From positions 1-64,000 of IMG/VR virus record IMGVR_UViG_3300025735_000009: a stretch of DNA of 64,000 nt. The stretch is one strand, 5' to 3'. Shown piece after piece: positions 1,093 to 13,482 of this stretch. Origin of the DNA: a virus. Its lineage: Duplodnaviria > Caudoviricetes. The translations under genes were made by a program, and so were the position numbers. The notes under the pieces were generated by a model. It was not told the DNA's origin and searched no databases. It saw only the letters and a list, made by a program, of their open reading frames with translations. The stretch's first letter is position 1. Every line of letters starts with the position of its first letter.

Positions 1093-1688
1093 GGCTTGCT
1101 CCTACGGGCGGCGCACATCTGCCAGCCTGCCCAACGAAGGTTTCTCCCATTCGCCCCCTCACCGTAGTGATCGCCGTTGCGAGACTCGCGCATTTGCTCG
1201 GGCGTGATGGGCGTAGAAACGCCTGGCAGCGCGTTGAAGTACTCGCAATAGGCGGCCTCGAACTCTGCCCGCTCATCACGCGCAACCGAAACGCTGCAAA
1301 TTTCTTCGGCTAGATCCTCGGCGCCGTTCTGCACAAGGTCTGGCGTGTTACTGAGGTATGGCAAGGCGCGCTGCAGCAGGACCCCCTGCCGGTCCAGCTG
1401 GGCGCGCAAGGCCAGGTGGTCCGAGAGCAGAACATACAGCGGCTCTACGGTATCGCGGGCCGTGGGGCCGAACTGATTGCGTCCATACACCGGGTCAGGC
1501 ACGACGCCGAACGTTTTGACGCCACCCACGCTGGCTGGCAAAGGTGCCGGCTTTGACTGGTGCGGATAGGGCGGCGTGGCCACAAGCGCCTCAAGCTCGT
1601 CAGCAAATGCCCCCTGACCGGCAAAGCGCAGCGCGCTGAGTACTTCCTTTGGGCCTGGAATGTTCATGGCTTGTTTATCTGTGCTCAT
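1089..1688 (-). CDS. phage hypothetical protein
   Basis: Likely start MSTDKQ at 1688, just after the MTase stop. Confidence 0.6.
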   Translation of the reverse strand: MSTDKQAMNIPGPKEVLSALRFAGQGAFADELEALVATPPYPHQSKPAPLPASVGGVKTFGVVPDPVYGRNQFGPTARDTVEPLYVLLSDHLALRAQLDRQGVLLQRALPYLSNTPDLVQNGAEDLAEEICSVSVARDERAEFEAAYCEYFNALPGVSTPITPEQMRESRNGDHYGEGANGRNLRWAGWQMCAARRSKP

Positions 1689-1725
1689 AGGGATACCTGA
1701 AACCGGCCATAGGCCGGCGTAGTAG

Positions 1726-3486
1726 TTAGGCTGCACTGGATAGGCGATCAACAACGCGCCATGGATCGTTAGCACGGGCCAAGGCTGCCATTGGTGGTGG
1801 GCTGACACTGTTGCCGCACATATGCACCTGCTGGGACTTGGTGAACGGCTCACCGTCCGAGCCCCGGTCAATGATGTAGTCGGCCGGGAAGCCTTGGGCC
1901 TTGTACAGTTCGGACGGCTGCAGCATGCGCAGGCAGATATCGACGATCACATAGGGCGTTCCTTTCACGAGCACAGTGACCAGGCCCAGGCGGTCTTTGG
2001 TGGTGACCGTTGGCGCCGGCGCGTCTGCCGCGCTGGTGTTTTCAGTGCCGTAGTAGCTGATCAGGAACGCAGCCACGCGCAGGGCGCCGGCCTCGTGCTC
2101 TGGTGACAGCGTGTACTCGACCAACCCATGGTGCTCGGCGCCGGCGGTGATAGTGGCGATCGGGGCGCCAATCTCGCTACCAATGCAATTGTTGCGCAAC
2201 GTGGTCAGGTGGGCGGTGGCCAGGCTCTGCGGAGACTTGACGGTCACCGTAGACATGGGCTCGTCCACAGCGCGACCCGTAGACGGGACGGTGCCCCGGT
2301 GGTTGTTGTTCTGCACCATGATCGCCGACGTAAGCGCATGCTTCACCCCGCCAGCGACCACCGTTCCCAGCGGCTGATCAAGGCCTGGCACGCGTGGTTT
2401 CTGTCCCTCACGCTCGCCATATCCGGTTTGCACCAAAGTAGGACTGGCCATGGCGAAGGTGCCGCCTCGCGGCCAGGCAGTGACGGTGCGCAGCGGTTCA
2501 TTGACAGATTGAACGCTGTCACCGGACCAGTTAGCGATCGGCACGATGAAAGGTTGCGGGTTATCGATCACAAACTTTTTCATGCCCTTAGCCACACGGC
2601 GCAACGTGGCGTCGGCCAGGGGCTTGCTACGCCCGAAAATGCTCTTGCTTGGCACACTCCAGTCGATGCAGTCGGCAGCGGTGCGCCACTTCTGCTGGCC
2701 TTTGGCTGGATTCTTGGCGTGGGTGGGCTCCGGCCACACGATCGGCTGGCCATCGCAGCGAGCAATCATGAACAGGCGTTCGCGGATTGTTGGGGCCCCG
2801 AAATCACATGCCTTGATCACGCGCCATTCGACCGCATAGCCCAAGCCTTCCAGTAGGCGCACAAACCGGTGCCAGGTGGTCCCCTGGCGCTTGGGGTTGG
2901 GTACCAGGAACTGATTGGACAACGGTACCTGCTCGCCAGGGTTGGCCACGCGATTGACCATGCTCTTAGGCTTGGTCGGGTGCGGCACCAGGTCGAGTGT
3001 CACAACGCGGCCGGTAGCCTTGTCACGCTTAGCGACCAGAGGCCCCCACTGCAGGATCTGCTTAACGTTCTCGAGGCTGATGACGCGCGGTTTCTTCTTG
3101 CCCGCCCATTTCAGGCCAATCCAAGACAGGTTGCGAATCTCGCGCTTGCGCGGTTGCCCGCCGGCGGCCTGGCTATGGTGGGTGCAGTCTGGCGACATAT
3201 GGAACCAACCAACTGGACGGCCGGCGCACTCTTCGTCCGGGTCACCCTCGAATACGTCCGTGGTGAAGTGCCGGGCGGCCGGATGGTTGACGGTGTGCAT
3301 GCTGATTGCCGCGGGGTTGTGGTTTTTGGCCACGGTCACGGTGCGGCCCAGGCCCATTTCCAGGCCGGTACCGGCGCCGCCGCCACCGCAGAAGAAATCC
3401 ACCACAATCTCATCGTCTTGAGGGTCGAAGCCAAGGCCGTATTGGGTCTTGAAGTCGAAATGGGGCTTTTTGATGGCCGCTGTCAC
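1726..3486 (-). CDS. dcm: C5 cytosine DNA methyltransferase (phage type)
   Basis: Motif I DFFCGGGG, catalytic SPDC, ENV, and C-terminal GNSV motif X. Confidence 0.93.
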   Translation of the reverse strand: MTAAIKKPHFDFKTQYGLGFDPQDDEIVVDFFCGGGGAGTGLEMGLGRTVTVAKNHNPAAISMHTVNHPAARHFTTDVFEGDPDEECAGRPVGWFHMSPDCTHHSQAAGGQPRKREIRNLSWIGLKWAGKKKPRVISLENVKQILQWGPLVAKRDKATGRVVTLDLVPHPTKPKSMVNRVANPGEQVPLSNQFLVPNPKRQGTTWHRFVRLLEGLGYAVEWRVIKACDFGAPTIRERLFMIARCDGQPIVWPEPTHAKNPAKGQQKWRTAADCIDWSVPSKSIFGRSKPLADATLRRVAKGMKKFVIDNPQPFIVPIANWSGDSVQSVNEPLRTVTAWPRGGTFAMASPTLVQTGYGEREGQKPRVPGLDQPLGTVVAGGVKHALTSAIMVQNNNHRGTVPSTGRAVDEPMSTVTVKSPQSLATAHLTTLRNNCIGSEIGAPIATITAGAEHHGLVEYTLSPEHEAGALRVAAFLISYYGTENTSAADAPAPTVTTKDRLGLVTVLVKGTPYVIVDICLRMLQPSELYKAQGFPADYIIDRGSDGEPFTKSQQVHMCGNSVSPPPMAALARANDPWRVVDRLSSAA

Positions 3487-3737
3487 AGCGTTTCGCCCCC
3501 TTTCACGTTGACCGCCATGCAGTGGTCCAGGGACACCGCGCCGCTCTTACCGTCGAACCACACCACAGCGCTATGGCCACCGAGAACTTGGGCCTCGCTG
3601 GTGGTCTTGCCGGTGTGGGTAGTGCCCTGGCCGCGGATGTTCTCGAAGGCGATAGCGGTACCTACCGGGTTTACGGCGTTCCACTTGTCGCACTGGGCTT
3701 GGAGCTGGGCGGGGGTCTTGCGCTTAGGTGCTGGCAT
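3483..3737 (-). CDS. phage hypothetical protein
   Basis: MPAPKRK start with RBS AAGGA; stop overlaps MTase start. Confidence 0.7.
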   Translation of the reverse strand: MPAPKRKTPAQLQAQCDKWNAVNPVGTAIAFENIRGQGTTHTGKTTSEAQVLGGHSAVVWFDGKSGAVSLDHCMAVNVKGGETL

Positions 3738-6299: not shown

Positions 6300-7856
6300 T
6301 CAGTCCAGGTCGGCCAGCTCTTCCATGGCCTTCTCAAGGGCTTGCTCGCGCTTGTCCTGTACCAGCGACTCGCTTTCGGCGCGCGCCGGCACGTAGTCCA
6401 CGCTTTCCAGGAAGACCATACAGACGGTGTCGAAGTAGTCGGGCGACGGCAGGTTCTCGGACGCCATGTCCTGCTTACGGGCAATGTGGTACCGCCCGAG
6501 CTCGTCCAGGTGGTACGGCATACGGCTGGCCTGGTCGAGCAGGTCCTTTTTGTATTTGCTGGTGAAGCGAATGGCGCCATCTTTGATGGCCTCGATCGCG
6601 TGCACGGTGGATTGGGCGCGCTGGTTGAGGAAGCGCTTGCGGTATTCGTTGGAGAACGGCAGTTCGCCCCAGCGCACGCCCTTGCAGTGGATACCGCCCT
6701 GGCCAAGCTCCTGCAGGCGCTTGAGGAACTGGTTACCCATGGCGTTGGTGTCGACGACGATCGTGACGTTGCTGAACTGTGCGGCGTAGTCCAGCACCTT
6801 GCGCGCCACCGGCGTCCAATCCTCGGTGCTGGTGTAGACCGGCACGTCGACCACTTCCACGCGGCGCCGATCGGGCGACATGCGATCGCCGTTACCGATG
6901 ACCTTGAAGTGGGTGGCCACCGTCTTATCTCGACCCACACCGGCCGCCACGTCGACGACAATGACGTGACCGTATGCCTCGCCGTCCAGGATGACCCGCG
7001 GGCCTTCAATGACGCGCTCGACCGCCACACGGCTGACCAGGTACTTGCTGGAGTTGGTCGGGAACATGCCCCGGACCTTGATCTGGTACTCAGGCTCATC
7101 ACGCCCGCCGTACTGGATGATCTTGGCCTTGATGAATGGCAGGTCGACCAGCGGGCTGTCTTCGGAGTTGAAGGTAAGCGCCGTCCACTCGCCGCCCTGC
7201 GCCTTGCTCAGGTTGTGGTGCGTGTCCCGGAAGAAACCGCTATCACGGGTAGGCTGTGACGCCATGATGAAGCGGTTACGCTTGTCGGTCAGTGCGCCAC
7301 CGATCACGCCAAAGTTTGCGTCCGGGATACCAGACGCCTCGTCCGCCATCCATAGCAGGTAGCGTTCGTGGGTACCGGCCAAGTTCTCAGGCGAGCCACG
7401 GGGCGCGGTGCGGGTGGTGATGAACCAGGTAGCCGAACGGGTCTTGATGTAGACCTTCTCGGCTTGAATCTCGATGTACTCAGCAACCCACGCGTGCGGG
7501 CCTTTCTTGATCTCCGCCAGCAGGTTGGTCATTTCCTTCCATACACCCTCTCGCACCGTCTTGAGCTTGGGCGCGGTTATGTAGGTGTTGGAATTGGGAT
7601 AGCACAGCATGTGCCAGAAGCCGATCACGCCAAACGAGCGCGTCTTGCCGGTACCGTGGCCAGACGCCACCGACACACGGGCGCCGAACACGCTGGTTTC
7701 GTCAAACAGGTCTTTCTGCTGGTGCGTGACGTCCATACCACACACCTCGACCGCAAAGGCGTAGATATCGGCGGCGTAACGCTCCATGAATTCCGGGTAG
7801 CGCGCATCAGCGTCAATGGCTGCCCGCTCTACCTTCTGTTTTGACGATCTGGCCAT
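6300..7856 (-). CDS. terL: terminase large subunit (P1 PacB-like)
   Basis: Walker A SGHGTGKT, Walker B WMADEAS, RNase H-like nuclease VDVAAG...PDYFD. Confidence 0.92.
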   Translation of the reverse strand: MARSSKQKVERAAIDADARYPEFMERYAADIYAFAVEVCGMDVTHQQKDLFDETSVFGARVSVASGHGTGKTRSFGVIGFWHMLCYPNSNTYITAPKLKTVREGVWKEMTNLLAEIKKGPHAWVAEYIEIQAEKVYIKTRSATWFITTRTAPRGSPENLAGTHERYLLWMADEASGIPDANFGVIGGALTDKRNRFIMASQPTRDSGFFRDTHHNLSKAQGGEWTALTFNSEDSPLVDLPFIKAKIIQYGGRDEPEYQIKVRGMFPTNSSKYLVSRVAVERVIEGPRVILDGEAYGHVIVVDVAAGVGRDKTVATHFKVIGNGDRMSPDRRRVEVVDVPVYTSTEDWTPVARKVLDYAAQFSNVTIVVDTNAMGNQFLKRLQELGQGGIHCKGVRWGELPFSNEYRKRFLNQRAQSTVHAIEAIKDGAIRFTSKYKKDLLDQASRMPYHLDELGRYHIARKQDMASENLPSPDYFDTVCMVFLESVDYVPARAESESLVQDKREQALEKAMEELADLD

Positions 7857-7899: not shown

Positions 7900-7940
7900 A
7901 CTGTACGGGGCGCCTGGATAGCGTTTAGCGCGGGGTTTGC
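7900..7940 (-). promoter_or_regulatory. putative late promoter for terL
   Basis: GCAAACCCC (7940-7932), 26 nt, TACAGT (7905-7900). Confidence 0.7.
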
Positions 7941-8707
7941 GCCACTGGGGCGCTCTGCACCAGGGTCGCCAGAAGAGCGGCCTGATGGCTTGATAGGGGC
8001 TTGCCGGCTACCAGCTCGACGAAGTGGCGCATATCGTCCTGGTGGCGAGCTCGCTGCTCGGCGTAGGTGGGTGCTTGCGACTGCTCGAGGTCGACAAGCG
8101 GATACCCATGCCCCCTGATCCAGTTCATGGTGAACTCTGGAACATGCCAGTCATGGGCGATGACCAGGGCATTGCCCTCGTAGACCATGGTGCTGCCGAT
8201 TACCCCCAGGCAGGTGGCTGGCAACTTCTCGCCGCCTTCCACGAGCCACAGCAGGCGCTGGGCGTACTCTCCGGCCAATGCCTCGGGATACCTGGCCGAC
8301 GCCTTGCGCATCTTGATAGCGCTGCCAAGGCGCCCCTCCACGGCCCATCCGGTAGCGCGGTGCTTGATGCCACGCGCCAGCCAGTAGAAGCGGCCGGTCC
8401 TGATGTGCTTGTGCAGCTGTGCAATGGCGCGGTTTGTTTCGCTGGCGCTGTCCGCGGGCGATGACAGCATTGTGAGCGAGTCCGGTGTGGTGGTGATGTG
8501 CCACAGCGCCAGCACCGCCAGCACCACGCCCTGTTGCTCCTGGCTGCCGGCGTTATGCAGCATCAGCCTGGAGGCATCCAGATGCGGGAGTGCGCCCAGC
8601 AGTTGGTCAGGGATCGCTACGCCACACACGTCGACGGCAAAGGCGTGCGGGTCACAGGCATAGCGCTCGGCAAAGGCTGGCCAGCGAAGATCGGCGTAAA
8701 GAGTCAT
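7925..8707 (-). CDS. degenerate paralog of the terminase N-terminal ATPase domain
   Basis: RWPAFAERYACDPHAFAVDVCG matches TerL RYPEFMERYAADIYAFAVEVCG; PEALAGEYAQRLLW matches PENLAGTHERYLLW; Walker A and B not conserved. Confidence 0.85.
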   Translation of the reverse strand: MTLYADLRWPAFAERYACDPHAFAVDVCGVAIPDQLLGALPHLDASRLMLHNAGSQEQQGVVLAVLALWHITTTPDSLTMLSSPADSASETNRAIAQLHKHIRTGRFYWLARGIKHRATGWAVEGRLGSAIKMRKASARYPEALAGEYAQRLLWLVEGGEKLPATCLGVIGSTMVYEGNALVIAHDWHVPEFTMNWIRGHGYPLVDLEQSQAPTYAEQRARHQDDMRHFVELVAGKPLSSHQAALLATLVQSAPVAQTPR

Positions 8708-10480: not shown

Positions 10481-10788
10481 TGCCCTTGCTCCTGCAGTTG
10501 TCTCGAGGTGTACGGTTTCAGGTTCTCGGCCCGGCCGCGGCGGCGGGTCGGTTTGGATTCGGTAGCGAGCGCCAGGGGCCTTACCCACAGCTGCCCAGTT
10601 TTGAACTGGAACAGCTCCCACAGGCCTAGCTTGATTTCAGCCTCGCCCTTCTCGTAGCTCTGCCAGGAACGGCGGCTGACGTGGATCAGGGCGGCACTGG
10701 CGCGCTGGCTCAGGCCGGCACGCTTACGAGACGCGCGGACCTGCGCAGCGTCGGGTATCAGGTCGGCGATGGATGCAATAGCGGTCAT
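10477..10788 (-). CDS. XRE-family HTH transcriptional regulator
   Basis: VRASRKRAGLSQRASAALIHVSRRSWQSYEKG. Confidence 0.85.
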   Translation of the reverse strand: MTAIASIADLIPDAAQVRASRKRAGLSQRASAALIHVSRRSWQSYEKGEAEIKLGLWELFQFKTGQLWVRPLALATESKPTRRRGRAENLKPYTSRQLQEQGQ

Positions 10789-11867
10789 CCCAATTTTCCT
10801 TCCTCAATCATGCGCAGGCGCTCCTGCATTTCCGCGCGTTGGCGCTCTGTCTTCTCGTGGGCGCGCGCAATGCGTTCGTCCAGCTCTTCGGTGCTCGGCC
10901 CGGCCTGTACGACAACGGCGGGTTCGACGTGTAGGTCGAAGATCTTGCCCAGCAGCTCGCGGTAGGCCTTCTGGGAGCCCGCGTGCACTTTGAGGCCGTC
11001 TTTCGTCTTCTCGACGCCCTCATACAGCGCCAATGCGGCTGGGCTGTAGGAGCGAGAGTCATGGAAGTAGAGGTACTGGTAGCCCTCGCCTGCGCACTCC
11101 GGGCAGTCCGGGTGGGGCGGAAGGCGCTTGTCATAGCCCAGGCCGCCCAGTTCATCGAAGGGGGGCAGGGTTTTGTTGTTGTTCTTCGCATCCGCCAGGG
11201 CGGCTTCGTACTCGGCCAGGCGGTCTTCCATTTCCCGGGGAGTGTGCTGGTACCGGTGGTCGATACCGTGGCAGTAGTGGCAGCAGGCGCGGCGCAGCTC
11301 GGAGATTTCCCGGGCATCAGCGAAGGCCGCGGCATGGATCACACCGATAACGGCGTTCTGCACGTCGGCGGTGCGCTTGAACATTTCGGCCTGGCGGGCG
11401 GCATAGTACGGATGGCTCTTAACCTTCTTTAACAGCCTGCTGGCCCCTGCAGCGGCCACCGCGTCGCTCTTGGCGGAATAGCCCGCATCACGGTACGACT
11501 GGGTGGCGTTGTAGGTGGCCAGGTACAGGTCCACGAACTTGGCCATCTTCGGGCTCAAGCCGTGCAACTCCGCAAGCGCTAAGGCCTCCAGCTCTTTTTC
11601 AGAGAGCGGGATCGGGTTTTTGATCTTGGTGGTGCCCTGCTTGCCAGGCGTGGTGCTGGCGGGCTCGGCCGCGGCTTTGGCGGTCTTTTTGGGGGCAGAA
11701 TTCTTTGCCGTTGCGGGGGCTTTCCCGGCACCCTTTCCGGCAGCCTTTCCCTTGTTAACCTTAACAGCCGACGCGGTGCGGGGTGACCGAGCACCGGGCT
11801 TACCCGATGACGCGGATAGTTGATCCTCACCCATGTCAGGTTTGTCGGTTTTAGGGTTACGTGGCAT
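10785..11867 (-). CDS. terS: terminase small subunit
   Basis: LSPKMAKFVDLYLATYNATQSYRDAGYS HTH typical of phage TerS, plus CCHYC...CPEC module; start MPRNPK with GAGG. Confidence 0.85.
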   Translation of the reverse strand: MPRNPKTDKPDMGEDQLSASSGKPGARSPRTASAVKVNKGKAAGKGAGKAPATAKNSAPKKTAKAAAEPASTTPGKQGTTKIKNPIPLSEKELEALALAELHGLSPKMAKFVDLYLATYNATQSYRDAGYSAKSDAVAAAGASRLLKKVKSHPYYAARQAEMFKRTADVQNAVIGVIHAAAFADAREISELRRACCHYCHGIDHRYQHTPREMEDRLAEYEAALADAKNNNKTLPPFDELGGLGYDKRLPPHPDCPECAGEGYQYLYFHDSRSYSPAALALYEGVEKTKDGLKVHAGSQKAYRELLGKIFDLHVEPAVVVQAGPSTEELDERIARAHEKTERQRAEMQERLRMIEEGKLG

Positions 11868-11942
11868 GGCTACCTCAAGCGCACTTTCTGCATTGCTGAA
11901 CGTGGTACAGGGGCCAACTTCCTGCGCCTCCTGCACGTTTGT

Positions 11943-11964
11943 AAAAAAGCCCGCGTGTGCGGGC
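11943..11964 (-). terminator. intrinsic terminator closing the candidate ncRNA
   Basis: GCCCGC-ACAC-GCGGGC followed by TTTTTT on - strand. Confidence 0.8.
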
Positions 11965-12290
11965 CCTTTCACTTCCTTCCTTGCCGCTACGCTGCAGGCT
12001 GGTACCTACAGCGGTTTCCAGAACCGGGCACGCCTCTGGTCAGGCGCGCATTGAGGAGCAACCCTCTGCCCTTCGCGGTTATCCATGCCATTGGTGTTTA
12101 GGGCCGGTCCTGCACCCCATCACACGCCCTCTTTCCCGGGCATGCGGCTCTGCCGGCAAACAACTCCAGCAGGCCACCAACAACGAGCGACCACGCAACG
12201 CACCCATTCGGTGGGTCAGTCCTTCCCTCGGCAGCAGAACATCAGGTACAGCGCTCACACAGGTTGCAGCGGGGGTGCCTTATGCCAGGT
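11943..12290 (-). ncRNA. candidate large structured non-coding RNA (family unknown; 5' end approximate)
   Basis: No credible ORF; at least 7 helices, many with G-U pairs only on - strand; long-range closing helices; terminator at 3' end. Confidence 0.6.
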
Positions 12291-12379
12291 CCGTAGACAC
12301 GTCCCATAAGGGCGCTGGCGGCCCCTCCCACTGCATAAAACAGCGCTCTCTAACCCCAAAACGCTCTTTTATGCGGTGG

Positions 12380-13081
12380 TCACAGGAACAGCAGTTGCTG
12401 GACCCGCTCTTTGATCTCCACCGGGTTAACGGCAACCGGCTCCACTTCGTCGTGCGCCAGCTTCTCGCGCTTCACCCGTTCGCAGTGTTCTTTCATGGTC
12501 ACATGCAATTCGCTCATCAAACGGAGCACCTTTGCGCCGTTTTTAATGTCGTCGTAGCCTGGATCGCGGCGGGCGATCTCCAGTGCATTGCCCAGGTTCT
12601 CGACCATGGTGGCCACCTGGCCCAGCAGCTCGCGATCGGCGCTGAAACCCTCGATCATGATTGCGCTCTGGCGCGCCATGGCGTTGACCATGCTATGGAA
12701 CTGGCTACCGACGGCCTCAGCCATCACGCCCACCAACACAGCCTGGTTACCCTCTTCTGGTGCGCGGGTAATGTCGTCGTGCACGCCCATCAGGTAGTCG
12801 ACGGTCACGCAGTAGAGCTTCGCCAGCAGTTTCAGGTTGTTGAGGCTCGGCGCCCGGTGGCCGTTCTCGAACAGGCTGATCTGGGTAACGCCCTTATGCG
12901 CCAGCGCCAGCCCGGCAGCGCTCTCGGAAAAACCGGCCAGCTTGCGGGCTTTGCGCAGGCGCGGGCCTACGATCGCCATCAGTTCAGCCTCAGCCTGGCG
13001 CGCCTGGTCGGACGGGCTGGCGCCAGCGCCCAAATCCTCGCTTTCGTCAAAAAGAGGTGCGACCGGGTCAAAAACCCCCAT
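12380..13081 (-). CDS. XRE-family HTH regulator with extended C-terminus
   Basis: RLRKARKLAGFSESAAGLALAHKGVTQISLFENGHRAPSLNNL; start moved to MGVF because the longer start lies inside an operator copy. Confidence 0.85.
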   Translation of the reverse strand: MGVFDPVAPLFDESEDLGAGASPSDQARQAEAELMAIVGPRLRKARKLAGFSESAAGLALAHKGVTQISLFENGHRAPSLNNLKLLAKLYCVTVDYLMGVHDDITRAPEEGNQAVLVGVMAEAVGSQFHSMVNAMARQSAIMIEGFSADRELLGQVATMVENLGNALEIARRDPGYDDIKNGAKVLRLMSELHVTMKEHCERVKREKLAHDEVEPVAVNPVEIKERVQQLLFL

Positions 13082-13119
13082 TTCGGCTCCGTTTTGACTC
13101 TGATTCGGCTTCGCTGAAC

Positions 13120-13192
13120 TATCCGCGTACATATTCACCGGTTTTAACCCTCCGTTGGCGCGATTCGAGGCGAGTAAAAACTATCCGCGTAC
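13120..13192 (-). promoter_or_regulatory. tandem operator motifs (13120-13130, 13182-13192)
   Basis: Two exact TATCCGCGTAC copies upstream of the HTH gene. Confidence 0.8.
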
Positions 13193-13482
13193 ATTAATCA
13201 AGGCATTGGCGCATTTACTTCGCTGCCATTGCTGGCATTGTGGCCACGTTCCTGCGCCCCATAAACACGGGTGTTTCAGGAAAACACGGGGCTGTACCGG
13301 CCGGCTGTGACCATGGGTTTGTGCCGGGCACAGGCAAGCGCCCGCAATTCCCTCGATTTGTGATTGCACAATGCCAGCTATTTGGAGTTTATGCGGCAGG
13401 CCTGCCGGAGTAGTCCCACAATTACATAGTATTTTGTGTGGGTATCCGCCCGGGCGAGTGCCAGCGGGCGGCTATGAGAGGG

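Follow-up and report, generated by a model that had tools for sequence, protein, structure and literature searches.

The DNA analysed here (hereafter the window) comprises positions 1-64,000 of a 77.6-kb IMG/VR virus record. On its minus strand, an XRE-type HTH regulator gene (12380-13138, 252 aa; Pfam HTH_3, E 1e-6; PHROG transcriptional regulator/repressor families) is followed, after about 510 nt, by the small terminase gene terS (10785-11867, with its ATG at 11867, 360 aa; Pfam Terminase_2, 2e-15; PHROG 51, 4e-27). An ESM Atlas look-up for the regulator gave generic HTH clusters only. The interval between the two genes holds a structured RNA of about 432 nt, which runs on the minus strand from 12374 to 11943, in the same orientation as terS, and ends 75 nt short of the terS start codon. 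The earlier note on this DNA had bounded the element at 11943-12290, and a conserved hairpin (P1, 12374-12333) moves its 5' end out to 12374. The regulator gene lies 5' of the RNA at every homologous locus for which the upstream side was examined.

Two features of the packaging genes themselves deserve mention. About the first 100 residues of TerS (window 11560-11867) form a Lys/Ala/Pro-rich N-terminal tail resembling histone H1 or AlgP, which is present in all close relatives and could bind nucleic acids. Further along the same strand, terL (6300-7856, 518 aa) matches PHROG 5902 in full, and a 260-aa ORF just upstream of it (7925-8707, minus strand) matches the N-terminal half of the same family.

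Searching by way of terS, and with conserved RNA motifs turned into DNA patterns, we recovered 19 examples of the RNA in total, namely 16 full-length members (window counted), within a family size range of about 400-440 nt, and three reduced ones of about 330 nt. Full-length members fall into four subfamilies: A (window, L011, L013, which is pKF715C, L191, L015, and L005), B (L010, L210, L008, L181, L187, L182, and L192), C (L195, a Pseudomonas atacamensis plasmid), and D (L211 and L212). The reduced ones make up subfamily E (L196, a P. fluorescens plasmid, L213, and L214). With a covariance model built on the 3' core, every full-length member reaches 129-226 bits, and the reduced members reach 22-26 bits (E 8e-6 to 3e-4). 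The RNA is found directly upstream of terS in all 14 closest IMG/VR terS relatives (47-78% identity), and the next 66 IMG/VR terS relatives give no match to the model at E<=0.001. Carriers are Pseudomonas phage-plasmids and uncultivated relatives, always with the RNA between the HTH-regulator gene and terS. Plasmid pKF715C of P. putida KF715 shares 78% (terS) and 77% (regulator) identity with the window, and the other cultured carriers are 81-kb plasmids of P. atacamensis SM1 and P. fluorescens DR133; these closest cultured carriers look like phage-plasmids. At two of these loci, the database start codon of terS looks wrong: in pKF715C (L194, NZ_AP015032.1) the annotated CDS begins about 320 nt downstream of the conserved ATG, and in the P. 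atacamensis plasmid (L195, NZ_CP070504.1) it begins inside the terminator of the RNA, about 100 nt upstream of the likely ATG with its RBS.

Broader scans add little to this set. The RNA occurs in three plasmids of PLSDB, and a motif scan of JGI metagenomes yields only two more contigs. No match is found among INPHARED phages, either with the RNA region (blastn) or with the regulator protein (tblastn), and an exact-pattern scan of 185,579 species genomes returns 45 chance matches, none of which is recognised by an nhmmer profile of the RNA. A looser 14-base pattern gave more than 100 chance matches in IMG/VR and was uninformative. The RNA family is thus rare and has a very narrow distribution. 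All its members belong to a single phage lineage in which gene order is conserved, so that genomic context provides little independent information.

The earlier note had described some 350 nt of this region as gene-free, and homologues agree: no conserved ORF was found in any of the six frames, subfamily B carries at least two stops per frame, the open antisense frame of the window is not kept, and homologue indels within the RNA are not multiples of three. The stems proposed at that time were also said to favour the minus strand, and to be worth comparing with shuffled controls. The minus strand of 11935-12380 folds with -208 kcal/mol (z = -3.83), which none of 100 dinucleotide shuffles equals, against z = -0.56 for the plus strand, and many G-U pairs in the fold would be A-C mismatches if the other strand were used.

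We then compared observed pairing with two controls (partners slid by 1-3 columns, and 500 column shuffles) in a model-fitted alignment of 14 sequences. Standard pairs occupy 79% of cells, as compared with 42-50% in slid controls; 31 pairs are changed on both sides (9-18 in slid controls), and so are 94 cells (15-29). No column shuffle out of 500 equals the observed value on any measure. The true signal is stronger than these core-model counts suggest, since that alignment places subfamily B one register out in helices Hb2, Hc, and S1; per-sequence duplex tables show the three helices to be intact in subfamily B. The check on covariation in homologues that the earlier note had called for thus comes out clearly, with compensatory changes in favour of about 12 helices as well as one H-type pseudoknot. 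Given these changes, a fold signal restricted to the minus strand, and the lack of a conserved ORF, a functional structured RNA is very probable.

The earlier note had also taken the RNA to belong to a family it did not recognise. Rfam 15 covers GOLLD, ROOL, HEARO, OLE, raiA, pRNA, 6S, tmRNA, RNase P, group I and II introns, riboswitches, CrcZ, RsmY/Z, and C4, and at gathering score its covariance models match nothing in the 64-kb window or in seven homologous loci. Even at E<=10, hits near the RNA in the window amount to sub-threshold junk over the terminator only (RsmY, OrzO-P, and Thr_leader), the RsmY model reaching 19 bits for a threshold of 57. Our literature search found no report of a structured intergenic RNA beside a phage small terminase gene; for pKF715C it returned only a genome announcement, and the abstract of that paper makes no mention of an RNA of this kind. 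These large, highly structured RNAs form a previously uncatalogued family, matching no Rfam family and carried by a clade of Pseudomonas phage-plasmids.

The RNA opens with P1, a hairpin of 16-20 bp (arms 12374-12358 and 12349-12333) that begins 6 nt past the regulator stop codon. Its arms covary (AAA/UUU replaced by CCG/CGG) and include G-U pairs that are viable on the minus strand only. The P1 loop ranges from 8 nt to about 45 nt (the longest being in L008), so a protein operator with fixed spacing is disfavoured, and no other copy of P1, as a repeated promoter or operator, was found in the window, where it is single-copy. P1 is followed by a 5' domain (12266-12334) closed by helix P2, in which GCAGUGGG (12334-12327) pairs with CCCGCUGC (12273-12266). 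P2 is paired in 16 of the 16 full-length members, with compensatory variants GCAGUAGG/CCUGCUGC, GCAGCAGG/CCUGUUGC, GCGGCGG/CCGCCGC, and GCGGUGG/CCACCGC, and the interior of the domain varies by subfamily. A linker (12217-12265) with GUGAG/GCUGU-like repeats, of unconserved length and sequence, leads from there to the 3' core.

This arrangement replaces both long-range helices with which the fold was formerly closed. In the outer one, CGCTGCA (12271-12265) had been paired with TGCAGCG; it instead pairs with GCAGUGGG as part of P2. The inner one involved GCTGTACCTG (12252-12243), which belongs to the variable linker and is missing in most homologues, and its proposed partner forms a covarying hairpin of the 3' core (Hh, see below).

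Subfamilies differ in several other respects at the 5' end. In subfamilies B, C, and D (L010, L195, L211, and L212), the 5' domain contains an invariant GGGUUGACC...GCGCCUAAG loop, around which a long hairpin covaries (GUAACGC/GCGUUAC replaced by GUGACGC/GCGUCAC), as well as a hairpin with a GAAA tetraloop. A pseudoknot was also sought in this domain, and its second stem (GGCGC/GCGCC) shows uncompensated changes only. Subfamily B has in addition a conserved non-coding element between the regulator stop codon and P1 (L010:4190-4312; also in L181, L187, L182, and L008). Three hairpins make it up: a covarying one with a GUAUAGCC...GUGG loop, one formed by CUGG...CCAG, and a GC-rich one that also covaries and, with its U-run, resembles a terminator. 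The element may be a small RNA in its own right or may extend the main RNA in the 5' direction.

In the 3' core, the fold set out in the earlier note fares better. Four of its stems, ACCCA/TGGGT, CTGCTGG/CCGGCAG, GCATGCC/GGCGTGT, and GCGCGCCT/AGGCGTGC, are recovered as Ha, Hc, Hd, and S1, respectively, while the rest of that fold, about half of it, is not. Hairpin Ha (12202-12216, ACCCA/UGGGU) is paired in 95% of cells and has three of its five pairs changed on both sides (e.g., GCCUC/GGGGC). Next comes a long-range helix, Hb (12076-12193), which surrounds a multi-helix junction and is made of two parts. Hb1 joins UGGU (12193-12190) to ACCG (12079-12076), with CGGU/ACCG replaced by CAGU/ACUG in L211 and L212. 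Hb2 joins GUUGUUGGUG (12184-12175) to CACCAAUGGC (12096-12087) over 9-10 bp in 16 of 16 members; compensated variants are UAAGUG/CACUUG (L015), GCGUG/CACGC (L195), and GCCA/UGGC (L211), and a bulged U is deleted in three subfamily B members. Between Hb1 and Hb2, a near-invariant internal loop sets GUCG(C/A)UCG (GUCGCUCG) opposite GGAUAAC, these being the most conserved unpaired nucleotides of the RNA. A helix proposed by RNAalifold, GCAUGG/CCAUGC, was set aside in favour of Hb, the variation of its 3' strand being uncompensated. As for GGTCGC/GTGGCC, another of the earlier stems, it is pairable in 13 of 13 sequences, but it shows no covariation and competes with the covarying Hb2; it may be an alternative conformer or nothing at all.

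The Hb junction encloses two hairpins, Hc (12150-12172, CUGCUGG/CCGGCAG), with five of seven pairs changed on both sides, and Hd (12122-12145, GCAUGCC/GGCGUGU), with all six modelled pairs changed on both sides and 92% of cells paired. It also encloses a lineage-specific insertion of 22 nt (12100-12121), present in the window and L011 and absent from all other homologues. The GGGGTGC (12118-12112) once thought to form a pseudoknot with GCACCCC lies in this insertion. Past the junction, small hairpin Hf (12053-12066, GAGGG UUGC UCCUC) is the weakest element, keeping its position with a variable sequence and 51% of cells paired.

An H-type pseudoknot (12018-12049) follows, both stems of which covary and persist in the reduced variants. 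S1 pairs GCGCGCCU (12049-12042) with AGGCGUGC (12035-12028) and is rebuilt with differing sequences in subfamilies A, B, C, D, and E (GGCGC/GCGUU, AGCGCC/GGCGUU, AUGCCUC/GGGGUAU, and ACGCUG/CAGCGU). S2 pairs CCAG (12039-12036), in the S1 loop, with CUGG (12021-12018); 55 of 55 cells are paired, against 12-38% in slid controls, and three of its four pairs are compensatory. The CGGTT/AACCG stem of the earlier note overlaps the 3' strand of S2 and is itself unconserved. The last conserved hairpin, Hh (11990-12013, CGCUGUAGG/CCUGCAGCG), has seven of eight pairs changed on both sides. Its UACCAG loop (12004-11999) fits the 3' strand of S2 in subfamily A and not in B, and inspection by eye revealed no conserved complementarity between this loop and other conserved segments. 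Subfamily E has lost Hc and Hd, and retains the GGAUAAC strand and the pseudoknot. As these two features persist in the reduced variants, we regard the internal loop, together with the pseudoknot, as the part on which the function of the RNA centres.

Two resemblances to known RNAs were considered and rejected. A CsrA/RsmA-sequestering sRNA of the RsmY/RsmZ type would expose several conserved GGA motifs in its loops; here, GGA repeats ahead of the terminator are found in subfamily A only and are absent from B, C, and D, and the single invariant GGA of the RNA is that of GGAUAAC. A similarity of subfamily B to a segment of 23S rRNA is not common to subfamily A, and no rRNA model matched.

At its 3' end, the RNA carries the intrinsic terminator that had been noticed before (11943-11969), with an A-tract, a GC-rich hairpin (GGGCCCGC-ACAC-GCGGGC), and U6. 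It is present in all members (98% of cells paired), and its hairpin has a stability of -16 to -19 kcal/mol in 13 of the 13 homologues tested. We infer that this terminator sets the 3' end of the RNA. A variable linker of about 20-45 nt separates it from the last conserved hairpin. No conserved antiterminator partner for its 5' arm was found in 13 homologues, in which the position of the best partner, counted from a fixed anchor, ranges between -195 and +41, and the terminator hairpin is 3-9 kcal/mol more stable than the best alternative pairing of that arm.

Between terminator and terS lies a promoter-like module (11868-11928, minus strand), made of a GGCGCAGGAAG box, TTGGCC (11917-11912), a 16-nt spacer, CAATGC (11895-11890), and an RBS. 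Its consensus across homologues reads GGCGCA(A/G)GAAG followed by TTGGCC, a gap of 16 nt, and a weak hexamer of -10 type. The module is kept at this place in nearly all members; in L212, none is seen between terminator and terS. A second copy, with a GCGCAGGAA..TGGCC promoter-like box (GGCGCAGGAA..TGGCC) at 13240-13257 on the minus strand, corresponding to 11910-11927 in the copy before terS, precedes the regulator gene by about 100 nt, and such paralogous pairs (one copy upstream of the regulator gene and one upstream of terS) occur in the window, L005, and L195. In the window, the regulator-side copy is followed by two GTACGCGGATA sites around the regulator start (13182-13192 and 13120-13130). 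The same site recurs inverted (TATCCGCGT) within codons ~10-20 of terS (about 11815-11830), where it is a full palindrome in L005 and L015. We infer from its conservation and duplication that the module is a promoter, its -10 hexamer being poor, and terS thus appears to be served by a separate copy of the regulator gene promoter. A sigma-70 promoter scan of the region reveals no convincing promoter directly 5' of P1. A late-promoter box, GGCGCAAACCCC, was also considered at the RNA or terS: it has only its first six bases in common, with a geometry off by 5 nt, and we do not count it in the same class.

An Ideonella dechloratans plasmid (NZ_CP088082.1; L198, locus 1649-3527) shows what this arrangement looks like without the RNA. 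There, an HTH regulator gene lies 20 nt from a terS of 412 aa, with no RNA between them; its product is distantly similar to the window regulator (27% identity over 65% of the protein). The pairing of regulator and terS may thus be older than the RNA. In that case, RNA and terminator look like an insertion that split an ancestral regulator-terS pair, with duplication of the promoter alongside. Such an insertion would have brought in a terminator and thereby made a second promoter necessary.

Taken together, the lack of a conserved antiterminator, the copy of the module before terS, the Ideonella pair, and the lack of a promoter 5' of P1 favour an RNA that is made as a terminated 3' end and acts in trans. 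It would be transcribed as the 3' end of the transcription unit of the regulator, from the promoter-like module carrying GTACGCGGATA sites, and perhaps cut out of the mRNA by RNase III-type cleavage at P1, its long first hairpin. The transcript would stop at the terminator of the RNA, and terS would be expressed from the duplicated module just downstream. The resulting stable RNA would act in trans around the onset of lytic or late development, binding a protein or other partner through its invariant internal loop and pseudoknot. We give about even chances to such a terminated, trans-acting product of the regulator transcription unit, the trans role being argued by elimination. In subfamily B, the terminator-like hairpin before P1 implies that co-transcription needs either a leaky terminator or an unrecognised promoter for the RNA.

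The alternative that survives best is a leader RNA acting in cis by antitermination, polymerase from the promoter of the regulator being rendered terminator-resistant, possibly together with the regulator protein, and reading past the terminator of the RNA into terS and downstream genes, a mode of action known from HK022 put and from the two-part conAn system of pLS20. The layout mirrors that of conAn in pLS20 (PMC8191782), and the strict synteny, with the RNA always directly upstream of terS and in the same orientation, fits as well, as does L212, in which no promoter-like module is visible between terminator and terS. However, a very strong conserved terminator followed by a conserved promoter-like module is what is expected if read-through is blocked, and the late genes have their own repeated putative promoter signature, so that operon-wide antitermination is not obviously needed. 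More generally, the promoter that terS seems to have past the terminator would argue mildly against any direct role in cis on terS. We regard cis antitermination as unlikely.

A riboswitch-like or attenuator leader, in which a ligand or protein would choose between a terminator and an antiterminator fold and thus gate terS, is improbable. A conserved core resembling an aptamer, with a terminator between it and the next gene, would suit such a leader, and two conformations are conceivable, as the invariant GGUCGCU...GGUGGCC can form a local hairpin that excludes Hb2. But the 5' arm of the terminator has no conserved partner in the 13 homologues, a linker of variable length precedes the terminator, terS seemingly has its own promoter downstream, and the element is 3-4 times the size of a typical riboswitch and matches no riboswitch in Rfam. 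Most improbable of all is that the conserved entity is a DNA-level element (pac site, operator array, or cruciform) instead of an RNA: P1 is a long inverted repeat, and pac and cos sites are frequently found beside or inside terS, but only one strand gives a fold signal, with many G-U pairs that the opposite strand would turn into A-C mismatches; covariation extends to the long-range and pseudoknotted pairings, which DNA-binding sites do not predict; and the arm spacing of P1 is far from constant.

The RNA combines a well-supported fold, a very small and well-defined host range, and culturable carriers, namely P. putida KF715 (pKF715C) and the plasmids of P. atacamensis SM1 and P. fluorescens DR133; what it does can thus be addressed directly, through deletion, induction, and pull-down.

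Large ornate RNAs of bacteria or phages with pseudoknotted cores are rare, and those which have been studied are ribozymes, ribonucleoprotein scaffolds, or multimeric assemblies. Among the closest known systems are GOLLD and ROOL, which are large structured RNAs of unknown function, often found in prophages. Like them, the RNA described here is a large (>400 nt), multi-helix, pseudoknotted, phage-borne ncRNA with a discrete terminator and no known function. However, their Rfam models give no match, their hosts are Firmicutes and relatives instead of Pseudomonas, and the present RNA is not beside tRNA genes, occupying a fixed site between regulator and terS in the 19 examples found.

In phi29, the pRNA is also a phage-encoded structured RNA, of which the present one would be an analogue under the packaging or late-phase role raised in the earlier note, which is speculative. 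Yet the Rfam pRNA model gives no match, and the phage described here has a small terminase, which phi29 lacks. The lambda 6S/tR' leader and HK022 put illustrate short terminated transcripts or structured RNAs upstream of late or packaging genes, beside a regulator gene. The RNA lies in a comparable place, just upstream of such genes and next to a regulator gene, but the lambda and HK022 RNAs are either far shorter or have hardly any structure, and their transcription begins from a defined late promoter. The present RNA measures 430 nt, its pseudoknotted core covaries, and no promoter was recognised at its 5' end.

Finally, conAn2 of pLS20 and the antitermination region of Tn916 are large cis-acting antitermination RNAs (PMC8191782, PMC11658703). 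In pLS20, the conAn1 protein gene is followed by a gap of 383 bp, which contains a 283-bp RNA element and a weak promoter that serves the genes behind it (PMC8191782). The present locus resembles these systems in gene layout alone, with a large RNA directly after a small protein gene, heading a structural or transfer block, and a secondary promoter, here a putative one, behind it. It differs from them by the strong terminator of its own just before that promoter, by an XRE-type HTH protein, and by a Gram-negative host. By analogy, RNA and HTH regulator might form a conAn-like two-part device that reprograms RNA polymerase at the late or packaging switch, or else the RNA might be a cofactor bound by the lysine-rich tail of TerS; both ideas are speculative, and we consider them rather unlikely. 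If the former were true, the RNA and its regulator would constitute a conAn-like processive antitermination system in a Gram-negative phage-plasmid.
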